38,999 nt of DNA from the UHGV virus genome UHGV-1350822, one strand, 5' to 3'. The position numbers and the translations under genes were made by a program. Source of the stretch: a virus. Numbering within the stretch: position 1 is the first letter of the stretch; every line of letters starts with the position of its first letter. A model generated the notes under the pieces. The model was not told the DNA's origin and searched no databases. It saw nothing but the letters and a program-made list of their open reading frames with translations. Below, piece after piece: positions 4,035-32,683 of the stretch.

Positions 4035-4122
4035 CGTAACCTACTGGATAAATACTCAATAGTACCATTTCGGTATGCAATCACATCATGGTTGCATCAT
4101 ATCATTCGTCTGGAGCAATGAA

Positions 4123-6321
4123 ATGTCAGATATCACCGCAAATGTTGTGGTAAGCATGCCTTCGCAACTCTTCACTATGGCGCGTTCTTTTAAAGCAGTT
4201 GCCAATGGTAAAATTTATATCGGTAAAATTGACGCTGACCCCGTAAATTCAGAAAACCAGATTCAGGTTTATATAGAGAACGAAGACGGCTCTCACGTTC
4301 CTGTTTCGCAACCAATAATCATTAACGCTGCCGGATATCCGGTATATAACGGACAGATTGCCAAGTTCGTAACTGTGCAAGGCCATTCCATGGCTGTATA
4401 TGATGCGTATGGTTCGCAGCAGTTCTATTTTCCCAATGTGCTGAAGTATGATCCCGATCAGTTTAGCCAGCGAATGGAGAATGTTCCTGACATCCATACC
4501 TTAATGAGCGAGCCTGCTGGGAATCACACATTAAATGTAATTGGATACGTACCAGGAACCAACTTTGGCGGCGGGCAGTTTTACTGGGATGCCAGCATGC
4601 CTAAATCTCAGCACAACGGTATCACCATATTTAGCCCCACAGTTCCGTGGGATGGTTCGTATGCTGAGCTCGCTGCTTTCCTTGCGGGAACTGGTGAGAG
4701 TGATGGTGGTGGCTCTGGTTGCTGGATCCGTTCGAATTGTGTGCTCGATGGCATACATACAGTTTGGGCTGGACATGATATTAACGGAGTGCATGATTCA
4801 ACGGCATCGGTTAACGCTTGTATATCAAAATTTGGTGGTGTTAGAGCAATACGTTTTAGCGCCGGTGAGATAAAGTTTAATTACCAAATCAGCCAGCAAT
4901 ATCATGACTCTGCAGGTGTTATACGTAAAACAGCAATTGTAATTAATGGTAAAAATAATTTATTTGTTTACGCAGATAATGATGTAAATATAAATACAGA
5001 TGGAAATGGTGAGGCTGAGCGTGTTTGCTTTGGTTTATTCAACTGCAAAAACTTTAAATTTAATGGTATAAAGTTAAACCAGTCATGCACAAATTTTTCA
5101 ACTGGACCTTCAGATACCACGTTTACCCCTCAAGAGAATTGGTTTGGTTTCGCACTTGAGGGGAGTAGTGGATCTATTAATGATATTGACGTATTGGCTG
5201 CAAGAATCTTTGTAATGGCAGATGCTGATGGTGACGGTGCTATACCAAATGAGGATATAACTCTTAGCAATGTAAGGACTGATTTGGTAACAAATTATAC
5301 ATTTTTCACTAAAAATCTTAATGGAATTGCTAAGATGATTGACTGCCAAACGTACAGAACAGGCAGAAAATGGCATACTTTTGGTGAAGATTTTGCGTGC
5401 TCAGCAAGAACAAAATATTTAATTGCAGAAAGAAATCACTTTATAAGCCCTATAAGTATTCAGTCTAGGATTACTCCTTGGGGGGTGACTGGTGGTGCAG
5501 TTATATCGAATAACATCAAAACAGGACAAGGAATATTCGTTGAGATAGGAGGTGAATCTAACGGTGTTGCAGCGCAGAATGTTGTTATTGATAGCAATAT
5601 AAGCATTGGGGATCAGAACGAGGATGGCACATTTTCATCTCATATTCTAATTATCTGGAATGGTAGTAATGACTACTCAACATCATTCAATGGAATTAAA
5701 ATAACAAAAAATACATTTAAAGGCGGTGGTTATGCCATAAATGATTATGCTGAAACTCAGATGTCTGCATATTGTTATGGACTTGTGATTGAAAACAACC
5801 AGTTTGATAGAACTGATGCCGTAAAAGTAACAATGCCCACATGGAGAAAATCTATATACCGAGGGAATAAGTCATATTTTGTTCATGGCAATACAGGTTG
5901 TGAAATTGGTGGTTATGCTCCAATTATTTCTGACAACGACTTTGATTCTACATATCTAGTATCAACTTCGGGTGTGCGTATCGATGAACCAGTTATTGAA
6001 AATAATGAGTTTAGTAACACTTTAAACTCACCAGTAAATCAACTTATTGACTGGCCTAGTTTTGCTGGAATGATATATAGAGGAAACAGATACACGTTTT
6101 CAATTAAGAAATTTAGAGATAACGCAGATATGGTTTCCTGTGGTTGGCGTTTTGCCGATGTGTCTGCTGGAATAGACACTGCTCCTACTACAACATACCC
6201 TGGGAAAGTGCTGATAAATATAGGCGATATGATTCACAATGCAGGTACTCCTGCATCAGGAACAAACTGGGCATGGTATGGTCTTGGAAACAATACATAT
6301 GGTAATCTTAATATAGCGTAG
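4123..6321 (+). CDS. Tailspike: P22-type N-terminal head-binding domain fused to a distinct beta-helix receptor-binding/depolymerase domain
   Basis: [11 protein letters not shown]...[11 protein letters not shown]...[13 protein letters not shown]...LKYDPDQ matches the P22 gp9 N-terminus; remainder is Asn/Gly-rich repeats typical of a right-handed beta-helix; GGAG RBS before ATG 4123 (ORF track start 4075 is probably too early). Confidence 0.85.
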
Positions 6322-6331
6322 CGGAAATCAA

Positions 6332-6349
6332 GCGGGGCCATCGCCCCGC
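6332..6349. terminator. Bidirectional stem-loop terminator between convergent tailspike and acyltransferase genes
   Basis: GCGGGGC-CATC-GCCCCGC 7-bp GC stem with 4-nt loop, T-rich flanks on both strands. Confidence 0.6.
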
Positions 6350-6353
6350 AATG

Positions 6354-7508
6354 TTACTTTTTAATGAATCTCCACTCAAAATTCTTAAAACAGATACAGG
6401 AAATAACGCTACACAGAGATGCAATAAAGGCTATCAAAATTGTGTAATTCACAGTAGACATGCTCGATAGGTTATAGAAATTATTTATTGTTCTCATTAC
6501 TATAGCCATGATAGGCAAATGCAGCAAATAAAGACTATAACTTGCCTCACCTAAATAAACTAATGATTTTATTTTAAATATTTTTGGTTTAGTTATAAGT
6601 ACCATTATAAATAGTAATGAAATGCATGCAAATCTGATTCGTCCATAGCTGTCTGCGGAAGAGCAGAAGATAACAAAAATAGCTATGAAAGAAATGAATG
6701 AGAATATCCAATATTTATCATCAATGTTAACATAAGATTTATTGAATATATATGCACCTAAGGCGCCAACTATAAAATATGGCCACAAAACAAATTCTGT
6801 CATAAAGTCTCTTGCCGCAAGTAACATTACTGCGGAAATGGCAAACATACCATATCTCTTGCTTGCGATGGCAATCGATAATAGAGGGAAAATTAAATAA
6901 AACCTCCATTCATACGGTAGAGTCCATATCACCGCATTTAATCCTGATGCGTTAAAAGAGCCAATGAAGATTTCTGTGCCCAAAAATCCAAACCCAAAAA
7001 AATTTAGGAAGCTTGAAAAATCAACAAAGTTAAGCCTTGCTGAACTGCCGGATAATATAATAGCTAAAATTGCCACCAAAAGCGCAGTAAGCATATATAG
7101 AGGAACGAGTCTTTTTATCCGAGCAACATAAAATTTATTCCAGTCAAATGTATTATTTCCTTTTATTAATTTATCAAAGAACAAAAATCCTGTAATGCAA
7201 AAGAAAATCTGTACACCGAAGCTACCCATATTCCCTGTGATGGAGTATTTTGTGAAGTCTATAAATATGGGCTGAACTCCATTGGTAATAATTGTATGAG
7301 CGCCGTGATTAATAAGAACGCTGAACGCAGCTATCCCACGCAATCCGTCTATAAAGAAATACCTGTTACTTGCAAAGTTGATGTGAGAAAAATAGTTATA
7401 TCGTGTCAATAGTGTAATACATAACACAACGGCTAAAAGAGACAAAAAATATAAATAAAGACTTTGCGCCTCAAAGATCATAATGCACACCATGAGATAA
7501 AATTTCAA
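6354..7508 (-). CDS. oac: Acyltransferase-3 family integral membrane protein, likely O-antigen acetyltransferase (lysogenic conversion)
   Basis: About 10 predicted TM helices; N-terminal R...H motif (RGIAAFSVLINH) and FFCITGFLFF motif typical of acyltransferase 3; very AT-rich; sits between tailspike and int as oac does in Sf6. ORF-track start is TTG at 7508; ATG at 7493 is more likely. Confidence 0.8.
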   Translation of the reverse strand: MKFYLMVCIMIFEAQSLYLYFLSLLAVVLCITLLTRYNYFSHINFASNRYFFIDGLRGIAAFSVLINHGAHTIITNGVQPIFIDFTKYSITGNMGSFGVQIFFCITGFLFFDKLIKGNNTFDWNKFYVARIKRLVPLYMLTALLVAILAIILSGSSARLNFVDFSSFLNFFGFGFLGTEIFIGSFNASGLNAVIWTLPYEWRFYLIFPLLSIAIASKRYGMFAISAVMLLAARDFMTEFVLWPYFIVGALGAYIFNKSYVNIDDKYWIFSFISFIAIFVIFCSSADSYGRIRFACISLLFIMVLITKPKIFKIKSLVYLGEASYSLYLLHLPIMAIVMRTINNFYNLSSMSTVNYTILIAFIASLCSVISCICFKNFEWRFIKK

Positions 7509-7726
7509 AGGATTATAGCAGGGCTACCAGCGCAGATCACCAACTCACTGCTCATGATGAGCATTTCTATGATTATAAAATAACTGCAAAAAGTATTACG
7601 TCTAACAGTGAAGCAGATCACAAAGACGATTTATGAACGTTCTGGTGAATTTGATGATTGCCAGGTAATGTGAGGCATGAACGAGGCACACAAAGCTTTG
7701 TACTATCCGATAGTGGTTAAGATCGA

Positions 7727-8884
7727 TCACTCCACCTTTTCATCAATCCAGTCAGCCCACCACTGCATCATTTCTCTGCGCTTATCTAGATACTGAGCAT
7801 GGTTGTAAATCCCGCGCACAGATCCGCCGTTGGCATGTGCAAGTTGCACTTCAATAGCGTCAGCAGGCCATTCGTGCTCGTTCATAATCGTGCTGAATTC
7901 ATGCCTGAATCCGTGACCGCTTTCCAGACCCTCATAGCCGATTTGTTTGATCACAAGCAATACCGCGTTCTCGCAGATTGGCTTTTTCTTATCGTTGCGC
8001 CCGGCAAAAACAAACTCTGATACTGGTTTAGTGATTGAGCTTAGCGTAGTGAGAAGTTCAACCACCTGGTCTGACATCGGGACAACATGAATTTTGCGTC
8101 CCTTCATCACACTGGCGTCGATGGTGATAATCCTGTTTTCAAAATCGACGTTCTTCCATTGCATGGAACGAAGCTCTTTCGTTCTTAGGGCTGTGTAGCG
8201 TAAAACTTTGGTCGCAATGAGCGATACGATACTTCCTGAAAATGTTGCAAGTGCTTTGTTGAATGCCGGGATCTGGTCGGCAGGTAAAAACGGGAAGTTC
8301 TTCTTGCGGTATCCCTTCATGGCGTCAGCAAGGTCAGGTGCCGGGTTATATTTAGCCCTACCAGTGACAATAGCGTAACGAAAAACCTCGCCGCATCTTC
8401 TGCGGGCTTTGTTGGCTCGCTCCATTGCACCGCGATCTTCAAATCTGCGGATTACTTCCAGCAGTTGCATCGGCTCAATATCCTGAATCTCAAGACCGCC
8501 GATGATGGGTAAAATGTCGTCATCAAACATTTTGGCAAGTTCAGTTGCATAGCCTACTGACCAGACTTGCTTCTTGTGCTCGTACCATTCCTTGTAAATC
8601 GCACTAAATGAATTGTTGCTAGACGAAGACTTTTTCGCCTTTACCGGATCGATGCCAACCGAGATGTCTTTCCTCGCAGTCCATGCCTTATCCCTTGCTT
8701 CCTGCAAAGTCATAAGCGGATATTTTCCGACAGTCAGGATTTTCTCCTTACCGTCAATCTTGTAGCGAAGCTGCCATACCTTTTTCCCTGATACAGGGAC
8801 ATAAAGGTACAGGCCATTACCATCGAGTAGGCGGTATGGTTTTTCTTTCGGCTTTGCTGCTTCAATCTGCTTAACGGTGAGCAT
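7727..8884 (-). CDS. int: Tyrosine integrase, P4/IntS-type (DUF4102 arm-binding N-domain plus catalytic domain)
   Basis: MLTVKQIEAAKPKEKPYRLLDGNGLYLYV N-domain; catalytic residues in HGFRHEF...LAH...Y; ORF track extends to GTG 8920 but ATG 8884 matches the usual IntS-type N-terminus. Confidence 0.9.
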   Translation of the reverse strand: MLTVKQIEAAKPKEKPYRLLDGNGLYLYVPVSGKKVWQLRYKIDGKEKILTVGKYPLMTLQEARDKAWTARKDISVGIDPVKAKKSSSSNNSFSAIYKEWYEHKKQVWSVGYATELAKMFDDDILPIIGGLEIQDIEPMQLLEVIRRFEDRGAMERANKARRRCGEVFRYAIVTGRAKYNPAPDLADAMKGYRKKNFPFLPADQIPAFNKALATFSGSIVSLIATKVLRYTALRTKELRSMQWKNVDFENRIITIDASVMKGRKIHVVPMSDQVVELLTTLSSITKPVSEFVFAGRNDKKKPICENAVLLVIKQIGYEGLESGHGFRHEFSTIMNEHEWPADAIEVQLAHANGGSVRGIYNHAQYLDKRREMMQWWADWIDEKVE

Positions 8885-9045
8885 GGGTAAAAATCCGGTG
8901 GGTAAAATTATTTTATCCACTTTTTACCCGTCATGGAGTGCGGCTGTCAACGATCTGACGCGAACCATGACGAACCGTGAATATACGTAAGGCTTGATAT
9001 TCAGGGGATTTTGCGGACTGGTACGGATGGGAGCGAACTGATAAA

Positions 9046-16037: not shown

Positions 16038-16128
16038 ATATTTATTTTTTCGCTGTCTGCTTGTTCAGTGATTTTTATGCGGGATATGTGAAGTGGATCC
16101 CGATAGCTATTGCTGTCGGGATTATGGG

Positions 16129-16497
16129 TTAGTCAGCGAAGGTTAAGACGAGAATTACCTTAATGATGTCTGCTACAACAGACACGGCCATAGATAAACC
16201 AAAGACGATCCAAGCCACAGTGATGTCTTCACTACCATCGTATAGAGTTCCGTAATCACTGGTGTAAGGCGTAAATGTCGCGCCTTGATACAATAGGTAT
16301 AAGCTTGATCCATAGAGGATAAATGCAGATATCCCTTGTATTGCTATGATCACAAGAATCATGAAACGAGCTGATCTATGCGCCCAAGCCTGGCTTATTT
16401 TTTCTGATAGAGATTTCGCAATAAAAGCATGCGCTAAGCCGTAAATTGTCGAGATTGCCAACATCCCAAAAAAGCTTGCTATAGCGGTTCCAACCAT
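16129..16497 (-). CDS. Small integral membrane protein (about 4 TM) co-transcribed downstream of cI; candidate superinfection exclusion or abortive-infection determinant
   Basis: Hydrophobic segments; occupies the rexAB position between cI and PL; AAGGGG RBS before ATG 16497 (ORF track gives TTG at 16518). Confidence 0.55.
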   Translation of the reverse strand: MVGTAIASFFGMLAISTIYGLAHAFIAKSLSEKISQAWAHRSARFMILVIIAIQGISAFILYGSSLYLLYQGATFTPYTSDYGTLYDGSEDITVAWIVFGLSMAVSVVADIIKVILVLTFAD

Positions 16498-16514
16498 AAT
16501 CGCCCCTTGCGTGA

Positions 16515-17231
16515 TCAAACCAGCCTTAGTTTTGTCTCAATTGCAACGCCTATAATCTTGCAGTTTCCATTGATTGGCACGAGAGGCCATGCAGGATTAA
16601 GTCCCTTGAGGTATTTATTTCCGCCGTCGATTATCAGCTTCTTGAATGTTGCTTCGTTAGAGTCAGAAAGTTTTGCTATGACCAAGCTGCCGTTGATCGC
16701 CTCCCTTCCGGTATCGAAAAGAACGAATGTTCCCTCTGGAATGCTTAACCCAACCGGTGCCGTCATTGAATCACCTTCCACTTTAAGCCAAAACGCATTA
16801 CCTTGAATATGCGCGTCAGACTCAAGCCAAACATCTATGTCTTTAATGGTGTATGGTTCGCATGCTTCACACCACGAGCCAGCCTGGATACTGCTTAACA
16901 CCGGATACCTCTTTCCTGCTCTGTATTCCCCTGCATACCTTACGTTGGCATCGCTCTTAAGGCTTTCTGCCTGTTCTGCAACCTTGGCAGCAATTGACTG
17001 GCTAAAATCAGCAATTGAGACTTGCAACAATCGTGCAAAACCAGATGCAACCTCAACGTTTAGCGCGTTTCTGCCATTAAGATAATGCCCTACCGCTCCT
17101 TGGGTGATACCCAGTTCATCAGCGATTGAGTATTGGGTTATTCCCAATTCTTTCTTTTTTGACTCATACAAAGCCTTAAGCCGCTTAGCGTCTTCGAGCT
17201 GTTCTGTCGTCAGTGATTTTTTATTTTCCAT
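16515..17231 (-). CDS. cI: CI-type prophage repressor (HTH_XRE N-domain plus S24 LexA-like autopeptidase C-domain)
   Basis: HTH QYSIADELGITQGAVGHYLNG; Ala-Gly cleavage site (SIQAGSW); Ser/Lys dyad (GDSM...FKKL). Confidence 0.9.
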   Translation of the reverse strand: MENKKSLTTEQLEDAKRLKALYESKKKELGITQYSIADELGITQGAVGHYLNGRNALNVEVASGFARLLQVSIADFSQSIAAKVAEQAESLKSDANVRYAGEYRAGKRYPVLSSIQAGSWCEACEPYTIKDIDVWLESDAHIQGNAFWLKVEGDSMTAPVGLSIPEGTFVLFDTGREAINGSLVIAKLSDSNEATFKKLIIDGGNKYLKGLNPAWPLVPINGNCKIIGVAIETKLRLV

Positions 17232-20418: not shown

Positions 20419-20455
20419 TGACCACCTACATCACTGAGCTAATAACAGGCCTGCT

Positions 20456-20486
20456 GGTAATCGCAGGCCTTTTTATTTGGGGGAGA
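20456..20486 (+). terminator. Rho-independent terminator (tR2-like) after the helicase
   Basis: 8-bp stem AGGCCTGC/GCAGGCCT with 8-nt loop, followed by TTTTTATTT. Confidence 0.75.
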
Positions 20487-20493
20487 GGGAAGT

Positions 20494-20820
20494 GTGGCTG
20501 ACTGGCAAATTCCAATCATCATTCTTGCCGGAGCTTCGCTGGTTGCTGGCTTTATCCTGCTGAAAAAGCATAAAGACCGTGATCAAAAAGTCGAAGTTCT
20601 CTATGGGTATCCAGCGAACAGCACAACATGGCTGACCATTTACCACTACCGAAAATCAGGCCGCTGGGTATTCGAATGGGATGATCTGTTCGCTGAAAAG
20701 CGATCAAAGTCATGGGGAGACATCAGCGAATGCATGATGTTTGAAGAAAGAAAATCCGGCGCAACTCGAGAAGAGTTTAACGAAGCGTGGGCGCGATTAA
20801 GTGAGAGAGGGTATTTGTGA
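20494..20820 (+). CDS. Hypothetical membrane-anchored protein (N-terminal TM helix), ren position
   Basis: 108-aa ORF; N-terminal hydrophobic helix IPIIILAGASLVAGFILL. Confidence 0.5.
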   Translation: MADWQIPIIILAGASLVAGFILLKKHKDRDQKVEVLYGYPANSTTWLTIYHYRKSGRWVFEWDDLFAEKRSKSWGDISECMMFEERKSGATREEFNEAWARLSERGYL

Positions 20821-21017
20821 GCAAGTACGAAAAATTAGATCAAAACATTCTTTCAATGCTGAGTGAAAGACCAACACCTGTTTTTGATATCTGGCTTAAA
20901 TGGCGGAGCAATGGAATGTATATCGAAACCATCGATCGCCGTATGCAATACCTGAGAAAGAAAGGGCTTGTTGCAAATGTGCGTGGGAAGGGTTGGGTGA
21001 AAATTAACCTGTCATAA
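20817..21017 (+). CDS. Hypothetical small protein, possible winged-helix
   Basis: 66-aa ORF; GTGA start/stop overlap with the upstream gene. Confidence 0.45.
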   Translation: MSKYEKLDQNILSMLSERPTPVFDIWLKWRSNGMYIETIDRRMQYLRKKGLVANVRGKGWVKINLS

Positions 21018-21028
21018 CGGGGATTGAT

Positions 21029-21295
21029 ATGGACGAATCAAGAAAGCAGTTTGAAGAATGGTTTGAAAATTACACCGGATGTGATCCTAAAAATAAAATA
21101 TACGCCAATATGGTTGAGATGTATTGGCAAGCGTGGCAGGCATCGCGAGCAGCTATCGAGATTGAGTGTCCTGGAAAAAGAGAGCGTGAGGCATTTTCTA
21201 CCGATTTCGAGGATGGGGTCACATTTGGTTATAACGACGCAATTAGTGAATGCGAAGGACGGATTCGCGCTGCTGGAGTCAAAGTGAAGGAGTGA
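21029..21295 (+). CDS. Hypothetical protein
   Basis: 88-aa ORF with RBS. Confidence 0.5.
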   Translation: MDESRKQFEEWFENYTGCDPKNKIYANMVEMYWQAWQASRAAIEIECPGKREREAFSTDFEDGVTFGYNDAISECEGRIRAAGVKVKE

Positions 21296-21297
21296 GT

Positions 21298-21462
21298 ATG
21301 AGCGCATACGAAGAAATCATGTTAGCCCTGCGATTCTTTTTCGGTGTGGAAGAAGATGAAAACGTAAATGAGATTATCGGGCAAGACCATGACCCGATAG
21401 GGACTATTGCAGCTGCACTTGACGATTACAGGAGCGTAAATGGTGAGGAAACTAACGTTTGA
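21298..21462 (+). CDS. Hypothetical small acidic protein
   Basis: AAGGAG RBS before ATG 21298; ORF track shows a longer version from 21250. Confidence 0.4.
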   Translation: MSAYEEIMLALRFFFGVEEDENVNEIIGQDHDPIGTIAAALDDYRSVNGEETNV

Positions 21463-21883
21463 ACTAAGAAGCCCCATCCATCAGCAGAACGCCATTCAAG
21501 CTATCCAGCAAATTCTTCCAGACCCAACCAAACCAATCGTAGTAACCATTCAGGAACGCAACCGCAGCTTAGACCAAAACAGGAAGCTATGGGCCTGCTT
21601 AGGTGACGTCTCTCGTCAGGTTGAATGGCATGGTCGCTGGCTGGATGCAGAAAGCTGGAAGTGTGTGTTTACCGCAGCATTAAAGCAGCAGGATGTTGTT
21701 CCTAACCTTGCCGGGAATGGCTTTGTGGTAATAGGCCAGTCAACCAGCAGGATGCGTGTAAGCGAATTTGCTGAGCTATTAGAGCTTATACAGGCATTCG
21801 GGACAGAGCGTGGCGTTAAGTGGTCAGACGAAGCGCGACTGGCTCTCGAATGGAAAGCGCGATGGGGAGATCGGGCTGCATGA
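21440..21883 (+). CDS. ninB: NinB (Orf-family recombination mediator)
   Basis: Near-identity to lambda NinB as recalled (…LTFE.RSP.HQQNAI.A.QQILPDPTKPIVVTIQERNRSLDQNRKLWACLGDVSRQVEWHGRWLDAESWK…). Confidence 0.9.
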   Translation: MVRKLTFELRSPIHQQNAIQAIQQILPDPTKPIVVTIQERNRSLDQNRKLWACLGDVSRQVEWHGRWLDAESWKCVFTAALKQQDVVPNLAGNGFVVIGQSTSRMRVSEFAELLELIQAFGTERGVKWSDEARLALEWKARWGDRAA

Positions 21884-22407
21884 CTATCAAATCAAATACG
21901 CCGGCACACGACAAGGACTGCTGGCAAACGCCGCTTTGGCTTTTTGATGCACTGGATATTGAGTTTGGATTCTGGCTGGATTCGGCAGCGAGCGACAAAA
22001 ATGCTCTGTGCGCTCACTGGTTAACTGAGGCCGACGACGCGCTAAATTCTGAGTGGATAAGCCACGGTGCAATCTGGAATAACCCACCGTACAGCAATAT
22101 CAGGCCGTGGGTGGAAAAAGCCGCTGAGCAGTGCATACAACAGCGACAGACGGTAGTTATGCTTGTGCCAGAGGATATGTCAGTCGGATGGTTCAGCAAG
22201 GCTCTGGAGAGTGTCGACGAAGTTCGCATTATCACTGATGGACGGATTAATTTTATCGAACCATCGACAGGGCTGGAGAAGAAGGGAAACAGCAAAGGCT
22301 CCATGCTGCTGATTTGGCGACCGTTCATCAGTCCTCGACGGATGTTTACTACCGTATCCAAAGCGGCATTGATGGCGATCGGGCAGGGCGTCAGGAGGGC
22401 GGCATGA
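21880..22407 (+). CDS. Orphan phage N6-adenine DNA methyltransferase (Dam-like)
   Basis: NPPY catalytic motif ([10 protein letters not shown]); ATGA overlap with the ninB stop at 21880 (ORF-track start at 21820 is unlikely). Confidence 0.75.
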
Positions 22408-22586
22408 GGCGACAGCGACGAAGTTTCACCGACATCATCTGCGAAAACTGCAAATACATTCCAACGAAACGCTCCAGAAATAAACGCAAGCCAATCCCAA
22501 AAGAATCTGACGTAAAAACCTTCAACTACACGGCTCACCTGTGGGATATCCGGTGGCTTAGAGAACGTGCGAGGAAAACAAGGTGA
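22404..22586 (+). CDS. ninE: NinE
   Basis: [23 protein letters not shown]...[16 protein letters not shown] matches lambda NinE; ATGA overlap with the upstream gene. Confidence 0.8.
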
Positions 22587-22753
22587 TTGACCAAAATCGA
22601 AGTTACGAACAAGAAAGCGTCGAGCGAGCTTTAACGTGCGCTAACTGCGGTCAGAAGCTGCATGTGCTGGAAGTTCACATGTGTGAGCACTGCTGCGCAG
22701 AACTGATGAGCGATCCGAACAGCTCAATGTACGAGGAAGAAGACGATGAATGA
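22583..22753 (+). CDS. ninF: NinF
   Basis: GTG start; translation [48 protein letters not shown] matches lambda NinF; not in the ORF track (under 60 aa). Confidence 0.7.
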
Positions 22754-23468
22754 GTTAATAAATGGCAATTCCATCAAAATGACAAGCATTGAAATCGCTG
22801 AGTTGGTGGGAAGTCGTCATGACAAGGTGAAACAATCTATTGAACGACTGGCGGCTCGAGGTGTGATCCGAAATCCCCCAATGGTGGTTTTCGAAAAAAT
22901 CAATAACTTAGGATTACTTCGTGGCGTAGAGGCTTACGTTTTTGAGGGCGAACAAGGTAAGCGAGACAGCATTATTGTCGTCGCTCAGTTGTCGCCGGAA
23001 TTCACCGCTCGTCTTGTTGACCGTTGGCGAGAGCTTGAGGAAACTGCGGTTAATATCCCCAAAACGCTACCAGAAGCGTTGCGCCTTGCTGCTGATCTTG
23101 CTGAGCAGAAAATGCAACTGGAAAACCAGCTCGCAATTGCCGCACCTAAAGTTGAGTTTGCCGATCGCGTTGGCGAGGCCAGCGGAATTTTGATTGGAAA
23201 CTTTGCAAAGGTTGTTGGAATTGGTCCAAACAAACTGTTTGCGTGGATGCGCGATCACAAAATCCTTATTGCTTCAGGTTCCCGGCGAAATGTGCCAATG
23301 CAGGAATATATGGATCGCGGCTATTTCACAGTGAAAGAAACAGCGGTCAACACAAATCACGGAATACAGATATCGTTCACCACAAAAATCACCGGGCGTG
23401 GTCAACAGTGGCTGACCAGAAAGCTGCACGATAACGGAATGCTGAAAGTAACAGGGGAGGCTGCTTAA
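22746..23468 (+). CDS. roi: Roi-like / Rha-KilAC antirepressor-family DNA-binding protein
   Basis: 240-aa protein; N-terminal Rha-like region and C-terminal KilA-C-like domain; nin-region position as for HK022 roi (recalled). Confidence 0.6.
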   Translation: MNELINGNSIKMTSIEIAELVGSRHDKVKQSIERLAARGVIRNPPMVVFEKINNLGLLRGVEAYVFEGEQGKRDSIIVVAQLSPEFTARLVDRWRELEETAVNIPKTLPEALRLAADLAEQKMQLENQLAIAAPKVEFADRVGEASGILIGNFAKVVGIGPNKLFAWMRDHKILIASGSRRNVPMQEYMDRGYFTVKETAVNTNHGIQISFTTKITGRGQQWLTRKLHDNGMLKVTGEAA

Positions 23469-24964: not shown

Positions 24965-24993
24965 TTGACTTTTTGAATAAAGTTGGGTAAATT
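24965..24993 (+). promoter_or_regulatory. Late promoter pR' (-35 TTGACT, 17-bp spacer, -10 TAAATT) with adjacent Q-utilisation region
   Basis: Sequence nearly identical to the lambda pR' region. Confidence 0.8.
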
Positions 24994-27017: not shown

Positions 27018-27191
27018 TAGCGATAATTTTACTCATCATCCTTCACATCTGGCTCTGTAGACAGGGTGGTGATCACTTCTGGAGTGAATCCAGATTAAAC
27101 ATCTCATTGCTGATGCTTGAAGTTGAGCATCTGGCGCGCGGTAAGGGGCTGCGTTGAGATAAGAGCCAGTTCATTACAAATACCAGGATTT

Positions 27192-27216
27192 AGCCTCGCA
27201 TTCGCGGGGCTTTTTA
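27192..27216 (+). terminator. Rho-independent terminator downstream of the lysis cassette
   Basis: Stem AGCCTCGC/GCGGGGCT (one G-U pair) with ATTC loop, followed by TTTTT. Confidence 0.6.
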
Positions 27217-27359
27217 TATCTGAATTTCACAGCGCATCTCACGCGCATATTAACGAGAGCCTTTCAGTAAGCGAGCCTGAGAAATGCCGTTATAGGTGGC
27301 GACCTCTCTCGGGCGGCTTTTCTGTGAGACAGGCTCACTTTCTAAAAGGTAAAGACGCT

Positions 27360-27878
27360 ATGAATCATCAATTGGCTAATCTCGATTTCCGGGACATGGT
27401 GGTTGTTTCTGGTGATCGCGTGATCACAACCTCCCGCAAGGTAGCAGCTTACTTCGACAAGCAGCATCACCACATCATTCAGAAAATCGAAAAGCTAGAC
27501 TGTTCGGATGAATTTCTAACCAGCAACTTTTCGCGGGTTACCTATGAACACAAGGGTAATCAGTATGTTGAATATGAAATTTCCAAAGACGGCGCGATGT
27601 ACATCATCATGTCGTTTACCGGCAAAAAAGCTGCCGCCATCAAAGAGGCGTTTATCAAAGCATTTAATTGGATGCGTGACAGGCTGATGGAGATGGCTCA
27701 CTCATACCAAAGAGAGCACAACGAGTTAATGCTGGAGTTCATGAAGGAAAAGGATGTTGCCAGTATGTCAGGACGCTTGCTGAACCGCTGGGGCAGGATC
27801 AAAAAACCGCAACTCATAGCAAGAATCGAAAGGCTTGAGCAGCAGGCGCAAATATCGATCCCCGGACTGCCAAAGTGA
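27360..27878 (+). CDS. rha: Rha-family phage regulatory protein
   Basis: 172 aa from ATG 27360; N-terminal Rha signature (...VVVSGDRVITTSRKVAAYFDKQHHHIIQKIEKL...); same position as P22 rha between lysis and packaging genes; the ORF-track N-terminal extension is unlikely. Confidence 0.75.
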   Translation: MNHQLANLDFRDMVVVSGDRVITTSRKVAAYFDKQHHHIIQKIEKLDCSDEFLTSNFSRVTYEHKGNQYVEYEISKDGAMYIIMSFTGKKAAAIKEAFIKAFNWMRDRLMEMAHSYQREHNELMLEFMKEKDVASMSGRLLNRWGRIKKPQLIARIERLEQQAQISIPGLPK

Positions 27879-30484: not shown

Positions 30485-32683
30485 ATGGCAGAAAAAAAGA
30501 TGACTGACTGGCATCGCAAGGTGCTGTGCAACTTTGATAATGCCTGGTCAGCAACGAAGGATATGCGTGAGCAGATTATAGAAGCTCAACGCTTCGTCAG
30601 GGTGTCCGGCGCACAGTGGGAAGGCAGCACAAATGCTGGTTACTCATTTGATGAAGGCAGGTTCGAGCATTATCCGCGCTTTGAACTGAATAAGATTGCC
30701 CGTGAATGTGATCGCATCATTGGCGAGTATCGACAGAATCGCATCAGCGTTAAATTCAGGCCGAAGGATGACAAGGCATCGGAAGCGTTAGCCGAAAAAA
30801 TGAACGGCAAATTCCGCGCTGACTATCAGGAAACATCCGGTGGCGAAGCGTGTGATAACGCATTTGATGATGCTGTAACGGGCGGATTCGGTTGTTTCCG
30901 CATGTGTGCTGATTACGAAGATGAAATGGATCCGAGTAACGAGCAGCGACGCATCAGCCTTCTTCCTGTTTACGACCCGGCGACATGCGTCTTCTTTGAT
31001 CAGGACAGCAAGCAATATGACCGCTCTGATGCTATGTGGGCTATGGAAATGTTCTCCATGACGCCTAAAGCGTTCGAGGCTGAATACCCTGATTCCATCG
31101 CGGCAAGCCTTTCTCGTGATGACACTGGTACTCAGTATGACTGGTCAACTCCTGATGCCATCTATGTTGGACGCTACTACGAAGTCCGCATAGAGAAGGT
31201 GAAGCTCACAGCATGGCGTAACCCTGTCAGCGGAGAAACGGCAATCTATGATGAAGAGCAAATCAAAGATATTGTCGACGAGCTGACCGATGGTGCATTC
31301 GAACTGATTGGCGAGCGAACGGTGAAGAAACGCCGCGTTTATTGCGGTCTTCTGTCTGGCGCTGAATGGCTGGAAGAACCGAAGCGTATTCCGGGCGAAC
31401 ATATTCCTCTCATCCCGGTATATGGGCGTCGCTCATTTGTTGATAATCAGGAGCGAATCGAAGGCCACGCTGCAAAAGCGATGGATGCACAGCGTCTTGA
31501 GAACCTGATGGTTTCCATGATTGCAGATAACGCTACTCAGGCTGGCGGTGATGGCATTCCTGTAGTTGATGTTGACATGATTCCTGGTCCTCTCGCCACT
31601 CATTGGGCGGAGCGCAACAAAAAGCGCCCGGCGTTCCTGCCGATGGTCAGTCTGAAAAACAAAAACGGAGATATTACTGCGCAGGCTCAGGTCAGCAGTT
31701 ATACGCCTTCGACACAAATGCCTCCAGCTCTTGCCGGGCTATTGCAGTACACCGGAACGGCTATTCAGCAAATTACAGGTGCGTCTCAGCTTGAGAACAT
31801 GCCGAGCAACGTCGCCACCGATACCGTTGATAGCATCTTTAACCGGATGGATACGCAGTCCTATATCTACATGGACAACATGGCTAAATCCATGCGTCGC
31901 GCTGGCGTTGTGTGGCTTTCTATGGCGCGTGAGGTCTATGGAAGTGATACGCCGATGCGTATCGTTAATGAGGATGGCAGCGATGACGTGGCGCTGATGA
32001 CTGGTGAAGTGGTTGACCGTCAGACAGGGCAGGTTATCGCGCTTAACGACCTTTCGCAGGGTAACTATGAAGTGACTGTCGATGTCGGTCAGTCGTTCGC
32101 TACTCGCCGTGATGCAACGGTTAAGTCGTTACTTTCCATGCTGGCACTTATCCCACCAGGAACGCCGAAGCACGACCTTGTATCGTCGATGATTCTCGAC
32201 AATATGGACGGCGAAGGGATGGACGACCTTAAAGAATACAACCGCAATCAGTTGCTTCTGTCTGGCGTTATCAAGCCGAGAACGCCTGAAGAACAGCAGA
32301 TGGTTGAACAGGCGAAACAACAACAGGCCAGTCAGCCAGATCCGGCTATGGTTGCAGCGCAAGGTCAGCTTCTTGCTGGTCAGGCTGAATTGCAGAAAGC
32401 GCAGAACGAACAGGCAGCCATTCAGGTTAAAGCATTCCAGGCACAGACGGATGCTCAGGTTGCTGCGGCAAATGTTGTGAAAATCCTCGCATCTGCCGAT
32501 AGCCAGCAAAAATCTGATATCCGTGAGGCGCTGAAACTGCTCGGACAGTTCCAGCAACAGCAAGGAGACAATGCCCGTGCTGATGCAGAGCTTGTCCTGA
32601 AAAGTCAGGCACAGGGCCATGCACAACGAATGGACATCAGCAGCATCCTGCAAAAATCAACCCAGCAACAACCACAGCAGTAA
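30485..32683 (+). CDS. Portal protein (P22 gp1 type with long C-terminal Gln-rich barrel helix)
   Basis: 732 aa; position after TerL; C-terminal Q/A-rich coiled segment. Confidence 0.9.
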   Translation: MAEKKMTDWHRKVLCNFDNAWSATKDMREQIIEAQRFVRVSGAQWEGSTNAGYSFDEGRFEHYPRFELNKIARECDRIIGEYRQNRISVKFRPKDDKASEALAEKMNGKFRADYQETSGGEACDNAFDDAVTGGFGCFRMCADYEDEMDPSNEQRRISLLPVYDPATCVFFDQDSKQYDRSDAMWAMEMFSMTPKAFEAEYPDSIAASLSRDDTGTQYDWSTPDAIYVGRYYEVRIEKVKLTAWRNPVSGETAIYDEEQIKDIVDELTDGAFELIGERTVKKRRVYCGLLSGAEWLEEPKRIPGEHIPLIPVYGRRSFVDNQERIEGHAAKAMDAQRLENLMVSMIADNATQAGGDGIPVVDVDMIPGPLATHWAERNKKRPAFLPMVSLKNKNGDITAQAQVSSYTPSTQMPPALAGLLQYTGTAIQQITGASQLENMPSNVATDTVDSIFNRMDTQSYIYMDNMAKSMRRAGVVWLSMAREVYGSDTPMRIVNEDGSDDVALMTGEVVDRQTGQVIALNDLSQGNYEVTVDVGQSFATRRDATVKSLLSMLALIPPGTPKHDLVSSMILDNMDGEGMDDLKEYNRNQLLLSGVIKPRTPEEQQMVEQAKQQQASQPDPAMVAAQGQLLAGQAELQKAQNEQAAIQVKAFQAQTDAQVAAANVVKILASADSQQKSDIREALKLLGQFQQQQGDNARADAELVLKSQAQGHAQRMDISSILQKSTQQQPQQ

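Follow-up and report, generated by a model that had tools for sequence, protein, structure and literature searches.

A Dam-type N6-adenine methyltransferase gene between ninB and ninE in the lambdoid phage genome UHGV-1350822

INTRODUCTION

The dam gene of a VT-2 phage was reportedly cloned by Radlinska and Bujnicki (Acta Microbiol Pol 2001). The sequence analysed here, UHGV virus genome UHGV-1350822 (38,999 nucleotides; this whole stretch is referred to below as the window), has a gene of the same kind, dam, at 21880–22407 on the + strand. The Dam-like activity of VT-2, which converts GATC to Gm6ATC, is cited as demonstrated in a paper that has Radlinska among its authors (PMC7139368), and the T2 and T4 Dam enzymes are given there as the only phage Dam proteins homologous to the cellular enzyme. 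Copies of M.EcoVT2Dam have been tabulated with GATC specificity (PMC6602927, Table 3). The Dam proteins of phages HP1 and T1 are also cited as Dam-like phage enzymes (PMC7556043, PMC7139368), and the function of phage Dam is described as still poorly understood (PMC7556043). From the comparisons presented below, the window gene is very probably the GATC-specific lambdoid-phage Dam known as M.EcoVT2Dam, and it is an already known, very common and routinely annotated gene of these phages.

RESULTS

The window gene encodes an intact PF05869 methyltransferase

The gene and the conserved segments of its product are as follows:

21880–22407, + strand: dam, 528 nt including the stop codon, 175 amino acids (aa), PF05869 / TIGR01712
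21916–21933, + strand: D13-x-W15-x-T17-P18, N-terminal motif found in a 39-sequence alignment, HP1 Dam and T1 Dam
21976–21990, + strand: L33-D34-x-A36-A37 segment, putative motif-I equivalent
22081–22092, + strand: NPPY, catalytic motif IV, residues 68–71

The family match is far beyond chance. The Pfam model PF05869, ‘DNA N-6-adenine-methyltransferase (Dam)’, is matched at E=8.3e-65 (218 bits against a cut-off of 28.1), with residues 4–169 aligned end to end on profile positions 1–167 of 169. The NCBIfam equivalog TIGR01712, ‘phage N-6-adenine-methyltransferase’, gives E=3.3e-79 (264 bits against a cut-off of 97.05), the PHROGs family phrog_111, ‘DNA methyltransferase’, also matches, and the best PADLOC matches are to ‘orphan methyltransferase’ (oMTase) models. 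A preliminary description of this DNA had called the product a Dam-like N6-adenine methyltransferase and had proposed a hidden Markov model (HMM) search against PF05869; the Pfam and TIGR01712 matches, together with NPPY at residues 68–71, bear out the assignment and place the enzyme in this ‘Dam’ family.

Conservation was examined in an alignment of 39 homologues with 59–86% identity. The segment N68-P69-P70-Y71-S72 is invariant in all of them and is also present in HP1 Dam and T1 Dam. Invariant too are T17, P18, L33, D34, A36, P97, D99 and W104, as are D113-E114, R116, K139-G140 and I145-W146-R147-P148. D13 and W15 are nearly invariant, and all four of D13, W15, T17 and P18 are common to HP1 Dam and T1 Dam. 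L33, D34 and A37 are conserved across the PF05869 family, and the segment that contains them would be the equivalent of motif I, which binds S-adenosylmethionine (SAM). The AlphaFold2 (AF2) model of the protein is poorly defined at residues 31–60 (predicted local distance difference test, pLDDT, 51–54), and neither sequence nor profile searches of the PDB turned up a solved PF05869 structure.

Because of these family matches and conserved residues, the window Dam is a class I Rossmann-fold amino-methyltransferase of a family distinct from host Dam, and structurally it fits an N6-adenine methyltransferase of that class. It shows neither a match to the alpha-class PF02086 MethyltransfD12 family nor the FxGxG motif N-terminal to DPPY that mark a Dam of the host type.

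The product is nearly identical to the VT-2 enzyme

The window Dam and the product of orf32 of phage VT2-Sakai are identical at 174 of 175 residues (99.4%), the sole difference being I60V. In the VT2-Sakai record orf32 is the only methylase-like open reading frame (ORF), and it is annotated as ‘similar to DNA methylase’. A tblastn search with the window protein gave 100% identity to an ORF of phage Nil2 and 99% or more to ORFs in 140 phage records, many of them Stx1 and Stx2 converting phages. The best nucleotide matches of the ninB–dam–ninE block include HK97, 434, SfI, HK140 and lambda-like isolates. The target motif had earlier been given as unknown; this is incorrect because of the near-identity to VT2-Sakai orf32 and the GATC assignment of the VT-2 enzyme in the literature.

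The coordinates 21880–22407 agree exactly with those first described. The homologues start at the Met equivalent to ATG 21880 and both HMMs begin at residues 2–4, so this ATG is taken as the start codon; the GTG at 21820, which opens the frame in the ORF list and would give a 195-aa version, was rejected. A GGAG lies 10 nt 5′ of the dam ATG. An ORF of 174 aa on the opposite strand (22014–22538) is regarded as a mechanical ORF, having no Pfam match and showing substitutions that are biased toward synonymous changes in the + frame.

Two GATC sites lie close to start codons in this block. One, at 21869–21872, is placed 3′ of the GGAG and 5′ of the dam start codon (GGAGATCGGGCTGCATG), and the other, at 22377–22380, is 24 nt 5′ of the ninE start; either position may be coincidence.

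The gene is widespread and under purifying selection

Copies of dam occur in 1566 of 5426 complete Escherichia coli genomes (about 29%), with up to five copies per genome and 95–100% nucleotide identity. A copy with a gene coverage of 80% or more is present in 1540 of the E. coli genomes, and the hits that were sampled are annotated as intact. In the protein database, intact proteins of 175–176 aa form clusters of 2325, 1929, 528 and 401 members.

The ratio of non-synonymous to synonymous substitution rates (dN/dS) was estimated by comparing the window gene with the copies of VT2-Sakai, HK97 and three prophages; all six translated copies are intact. The five comparisons yield 7–15 synonymous and 0–2 non-synonymous changes, with dS of 0.06–0.14 and dN/dS from 0 to 0.08 (0.024 for HK97). 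Because nearly all differences are synonymous, dam is under strong purifying selection.

Decayed copies exist as well. In Shigella phage Sf6 (NC_005344; L012) the gene is present at 31912–32439 with 98% nucleotide identity, but codon 50 is changed from GAG to TAG, making it an amber pseudogene, and neither Sf6 record has a coding sequence annotated between ninB and ninE. The protein database also holds truncated or fused variants, such as P0045, P0053 and P0064. The preliminary description had named frameshifts in other isolates, indicating a pseudogene, as what would count against a working enzyme. An inactivated copy is found in Sf6, but the sampled E. coli hits and all six translated copies are intact. 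The gene is dispensable in laboratory culture, as expected for the nin region, yet generally maintained in nature.

The gene lies in a nin region within the rightward early operon

The neighbouring features are:

20447–20470, + strand: tR2-like intrinsic terminator preceding the nin block (8-bp GC-rich stem, then a run of T residues)
21440–21883, + strand: ninB/orf recombination mediator, upstream neighbour (PF05772, 2.4e-54)
21880–21883, + strand: ATGA, ninB stop and dam start
22404–22407, + strand: ATGA, dam stop and ninE start
22404–22586, + strand: ninE, downstream neighbour (PF05322, 8.9e-42)

After the DnaB-like replication gene the order is small ORFs of unknown function, ninB, dam, ninE, ninF, an Ant/KilAC antirepressor gene, ybcO, rusA and Q. 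From one gene to the next, ATGA or GTGA overlaps form the junctions at 20817, 21880, 22404, 22583 and 23755; ATGA junctions are typical of lambdoid nin regions (PMC8022706). The overlap of dam with ninB, from which translational coupling had been proposed, is confirmed and is consistent with such coupling.

The tR2-like hairpin lies directly after the helicase gene, and the equivalent site in Sf6 is annotated as tR2. Downstream of it, no promoter-like site was found before 24965–24993 (+), which follows Q. Because dam lies downstream of this terminator with no promoter-like site before 24965, its expression is probably delayed-early and dependent on antitermination by N. The first terminator-like site on the + strand 3′ of dam is at 23168. 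The PR′-like promoter at 24965–24993 and the tR2-like terminator bracket the nin block.

The slot between ninB and ninE is itself variable: it is occupied by ninC and ninD in lambda, by ninD only in P22 and by dam in the window phage, HK97 and VT2-Sakai. The neighbourhood of dam also varies across related prophages, and in an E. coli O121:H19 prophage a gene with a NUMOD4 domain (902–1504 of L006) is inserted between ninB and dam.

No restriction partner is found among the neighbouring genes

The claim that dam has no cognate restriction enzyme holds for the ORFs covered: with Pfam or PHROGs, no restriction endonuclease family was matched by the six neighbours or by 23 further early and late-regulatory ORFs, a scan in which the structural-gene ORFs were not taken individually. 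Among 10 proteins searched with PADLOC there was no defence match besides Dam itself. The flanking genes encode NinB, NinE, NinF, Ant/KilAC, YbcO and RusA. YbcO and RusA are nucleases, but they are junction- or structure-specific enzymes of the nin type. No Lar-like restriction-alleviation gene was recognized upstream of ninB, where the small ORFs at 20817–21462 have no Pfam match. Two related prophages (L004 and L005) have a Lar-family restriction-alleviation gene directly upstream of ninB, at 865–1101.

DISCUSSION

A possible role in methylating replicating phage DNA

Of the roles considered, the likeliest, which we put forward tentatively, is a top-up one, in which this Dam adds to GATC methylation while phage DNA is replicating fast. 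The chemistry would be SAM-dependent N6 methylation of a flipped-out adenine in GATC; the NPPY motif holds the target base, by analogy with other amino-methyltransferases. The specificity is taken from the literature, and we infer the timing of expression and the biological benefit. Dam is probably produced at the delayed-early stage, in lytic growth or on induction, and on this proposal it would supplement methylation when phage replication outpaces a limited supply of host Dam, so that all 94 GATC sites of progeny genomes might be methylated instead of only about half. The pay-off could be (i) escape in the next host from methylation-sensitive restriction enzymes that cut GATC, (ii) avoidance of MutH cleavage at unmethylated GATC or (iii) less SeqA binding to hemimethylated DNA, or altered gene regulation. 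The ‘anti-restriction or epigenetic regulator’ of the preliminary description would be a plausible role for a Dam of this family.

Several published results bear on this proposal. Lambda is without this dam gene; its virion DNA is only about 46% GATC-methylated after growth on a wild-type host, but overproduction of Dam brings the figure to 77% (bioRxiv 10.1101/2025.08.29.673000). Both P22 and lambda are reported to be undermethylated, possibly because replication is faster than host Dam (PMC8022706). For MutH cleavage at unmethylated GATC, PMC5014478 cites Deschavanne & Radman 1991.

A limit on the specificity is that it comes from two secondary citations together with the 99.4% identity to VT2-Sakai orf32. 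Other observations weigh against the top-up role, or against a large effect. The mutation rate of lambda is unchanged when methylation rises from 46% to 77% (bioRxiv 10.1101/2025.08.29.673000), and Sf6 grows with its amber-inactivated copy. The Phi24B dam product has been detected in lysogen cultures (PMC3342100), a poor fit with purely lytic expression; we suggest that it may derive from spontaneously induced cells. Finally, GATC is as depleted in the dam-carrying lambdoid phages as in lambda, with no visible relaxation of GATC avoidance.

The window contains 94 GATC sites, against 202 expected from a Markov model and 148 from base composition, and CTAG is the one 4-bp palindrome with a stronger depletion. 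Observed/expected ratios from the Markov model are 0.47 for the window, 0.59 for VT2-Sa, 0.49 for Sf6, 0.55 for lambda, 0.33 for P22 and 0.78 for T1, a comparison of six genomes that share mosaic modules and are too few for a conclusion. P22, which like lambda is without dam, is the most depleted, and the virulent T1 is much less so. Among the window, VT2-Sa, Sf6, lambda and P22, no relaxation of GATC avoidance with dam is seen, and T1 alone is less depleted.

The sites may cluster in one region. Seven GATC sites fall within the 600 bp at 16096–16695, compared with a window average of 2.4 per kb. This stretch overlies an ORF of unknown function at 16129–16518 (−, phrog_6534), directly downstream of the cI-like repressor gene.

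Alternative roles

An unlikely alternative, although the one that fares best, is that Dam serves chiefly as an epigenetic regulator during lysogeny, supplementing or replacing host Dam and thereby stabilizing lysogeny or changing host gene expression. The Phi24B product from lysogen cultures would fit such a role, as would the requirement of host Dam for stable 933W lysogeny (PMC3342100). A prophage-encoded NPPY methyltransferase of Staphylococcus aureus, PamA, is active on GATC and reprograms virulence (PMC12435837). Against a lysogenic role, the dam gene of the window belongs to the repressed PR operon, where a tR2-like terminator precedes it and nothing resembling a promoter is close by. 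PamA is not a valid parallel, as S. aureus is not known to have a host Dam. In E. coli that carry such prophages, host Dam methylates 99.9% of GATC sites (PMC6602927), and an extra Dam would therefore change little in the lysogen.

Less probable still is a more specialized version of the enzyme's function. As a ‘mini-Dam’, a PF05869 protein without a separate target-recognition domain, it may recognize GATC by an unusual route, for example in dimeric form or, jointly with the coupled NinB/Orf, on intermediates of replication or recombination; its real role might be to counter a specific host defence that is directed at GATC or senses methylation state, rather than general top-up. A relaxed or non-GATC specificity, whether as non-specific anti-restriction of the M.EcoGII kind or as action on single-stranded DNA or RNA, is improbable given the VT-2 data. 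The least credible alternative, a decaying, non-functional passenger, could appeal to the amber codon at position 50 in Sf6, to the truncated or fused variants and to a nin region that is non-essential in lambda (PMC8022706), but the window gene is full length with all conserved motifs present, its dN/dS of 0.02–0.08 is measured at dS of up to 0.15, and it has thousands of intact relatives in the large protein clusters, besides the E. coli copies of at least 80% coverage, of which those sampled are annotated as intact, so that pseudogene status is excluded for the window copy.

The wider window

The window (1–38999) looks like a nearly complete temperate phage genome of the P22-like (Lederbergvirus) type. 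Its composition is mosaic: phiv205-1, CUS-3, E212, Kapi1, HK620 and Sf6, the best phage records, each cover only 48–65% of 14000–38999. The stretch 4075–7508 holds a tailspike gene, whose product (748 aa) has a P22-type head-binding domain only at the N-terminus. Adjoining it, at 6354–7508 (−), is an Acyl_transf_3 protein that resembles O-antigen acetylases, as oac does in Sf6. Both are largely without matches of at least 85% identity in the phage collection, and the best records cover about one third of 4075–8920, under the tailspike and integrase annotations. This suggests that the tailspike/Acyl_transf_3 region is an unsampled receptor and serotype-conversion module.

Two genes of the Rha/antirepressor type are also present. 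The first (22746–23468) encodes an Ant protein with a KilAC domain and interrupts the nin region, with ninF and ybcO on either side; the second (27117–27878) encodes a Rha + ORF11CD3 protein and lies between the lysis and packaging genes.

Comparison with known systems

A near-identical orthologue of the window gene was cloned and assigned GATC specificity in 2001. The structure of a PF05869 protein, the reading of GATC without a separate recognition domain and the benefit where the host already has Dam are questions of the whole family rather than of this locus.

M.EcoVT2Dam is the closest described system. It has the same length, the same slot between ninB and ninE, the same overlapping stop/start organization, 174 of 175 residues in common and the reported GATC specificity. 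The differences are the conservative I60V change and the genome that carries the gene, here that of a mosaic P22-like podovirus and not of an Stx2 phage. HK97 gp62 and its equivalents in 434, SfI, HK140, mEp332 and the ‘Lambda_ev’ isolates have the ninB–dam–ninE block at 96–98% nucleotide identity; no functional difference from the window Dam is evident, and these copies are annotated by homology alone.

HP1 Dam, from a Haemophilus phage, and T1 Dam, from a coliphage, have the PF05869 domain and the DxWxTP, LDxxA and NPPYS motifs in common with the window Dam, but their identity to it is only 35% and 32%, respectively, and their genomic contexts differ. T1 Dam is further distinguished by 45 extra residues at the N-terminus and by an insertion within the chain. 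The alpha-class (PF02086) enzymes E. coli Dam and T4 Dam are alike in their GATC target, N6-adenine methylation, (D/N)PPY motif, Rossmann fold and orphan status; apart from the fold and the (D/N)PPY motif, however, PF05869 is unrelated to host Dam. M.EcoGII and M.EcoGI resemble the window Dam in being orphan m6A methyltransferases borne by prophages of pathogenic E. coli and thought to be activated on induction, but they are beta-class enzymes of about 349 aa that have no sequence specificity and belong to another family.
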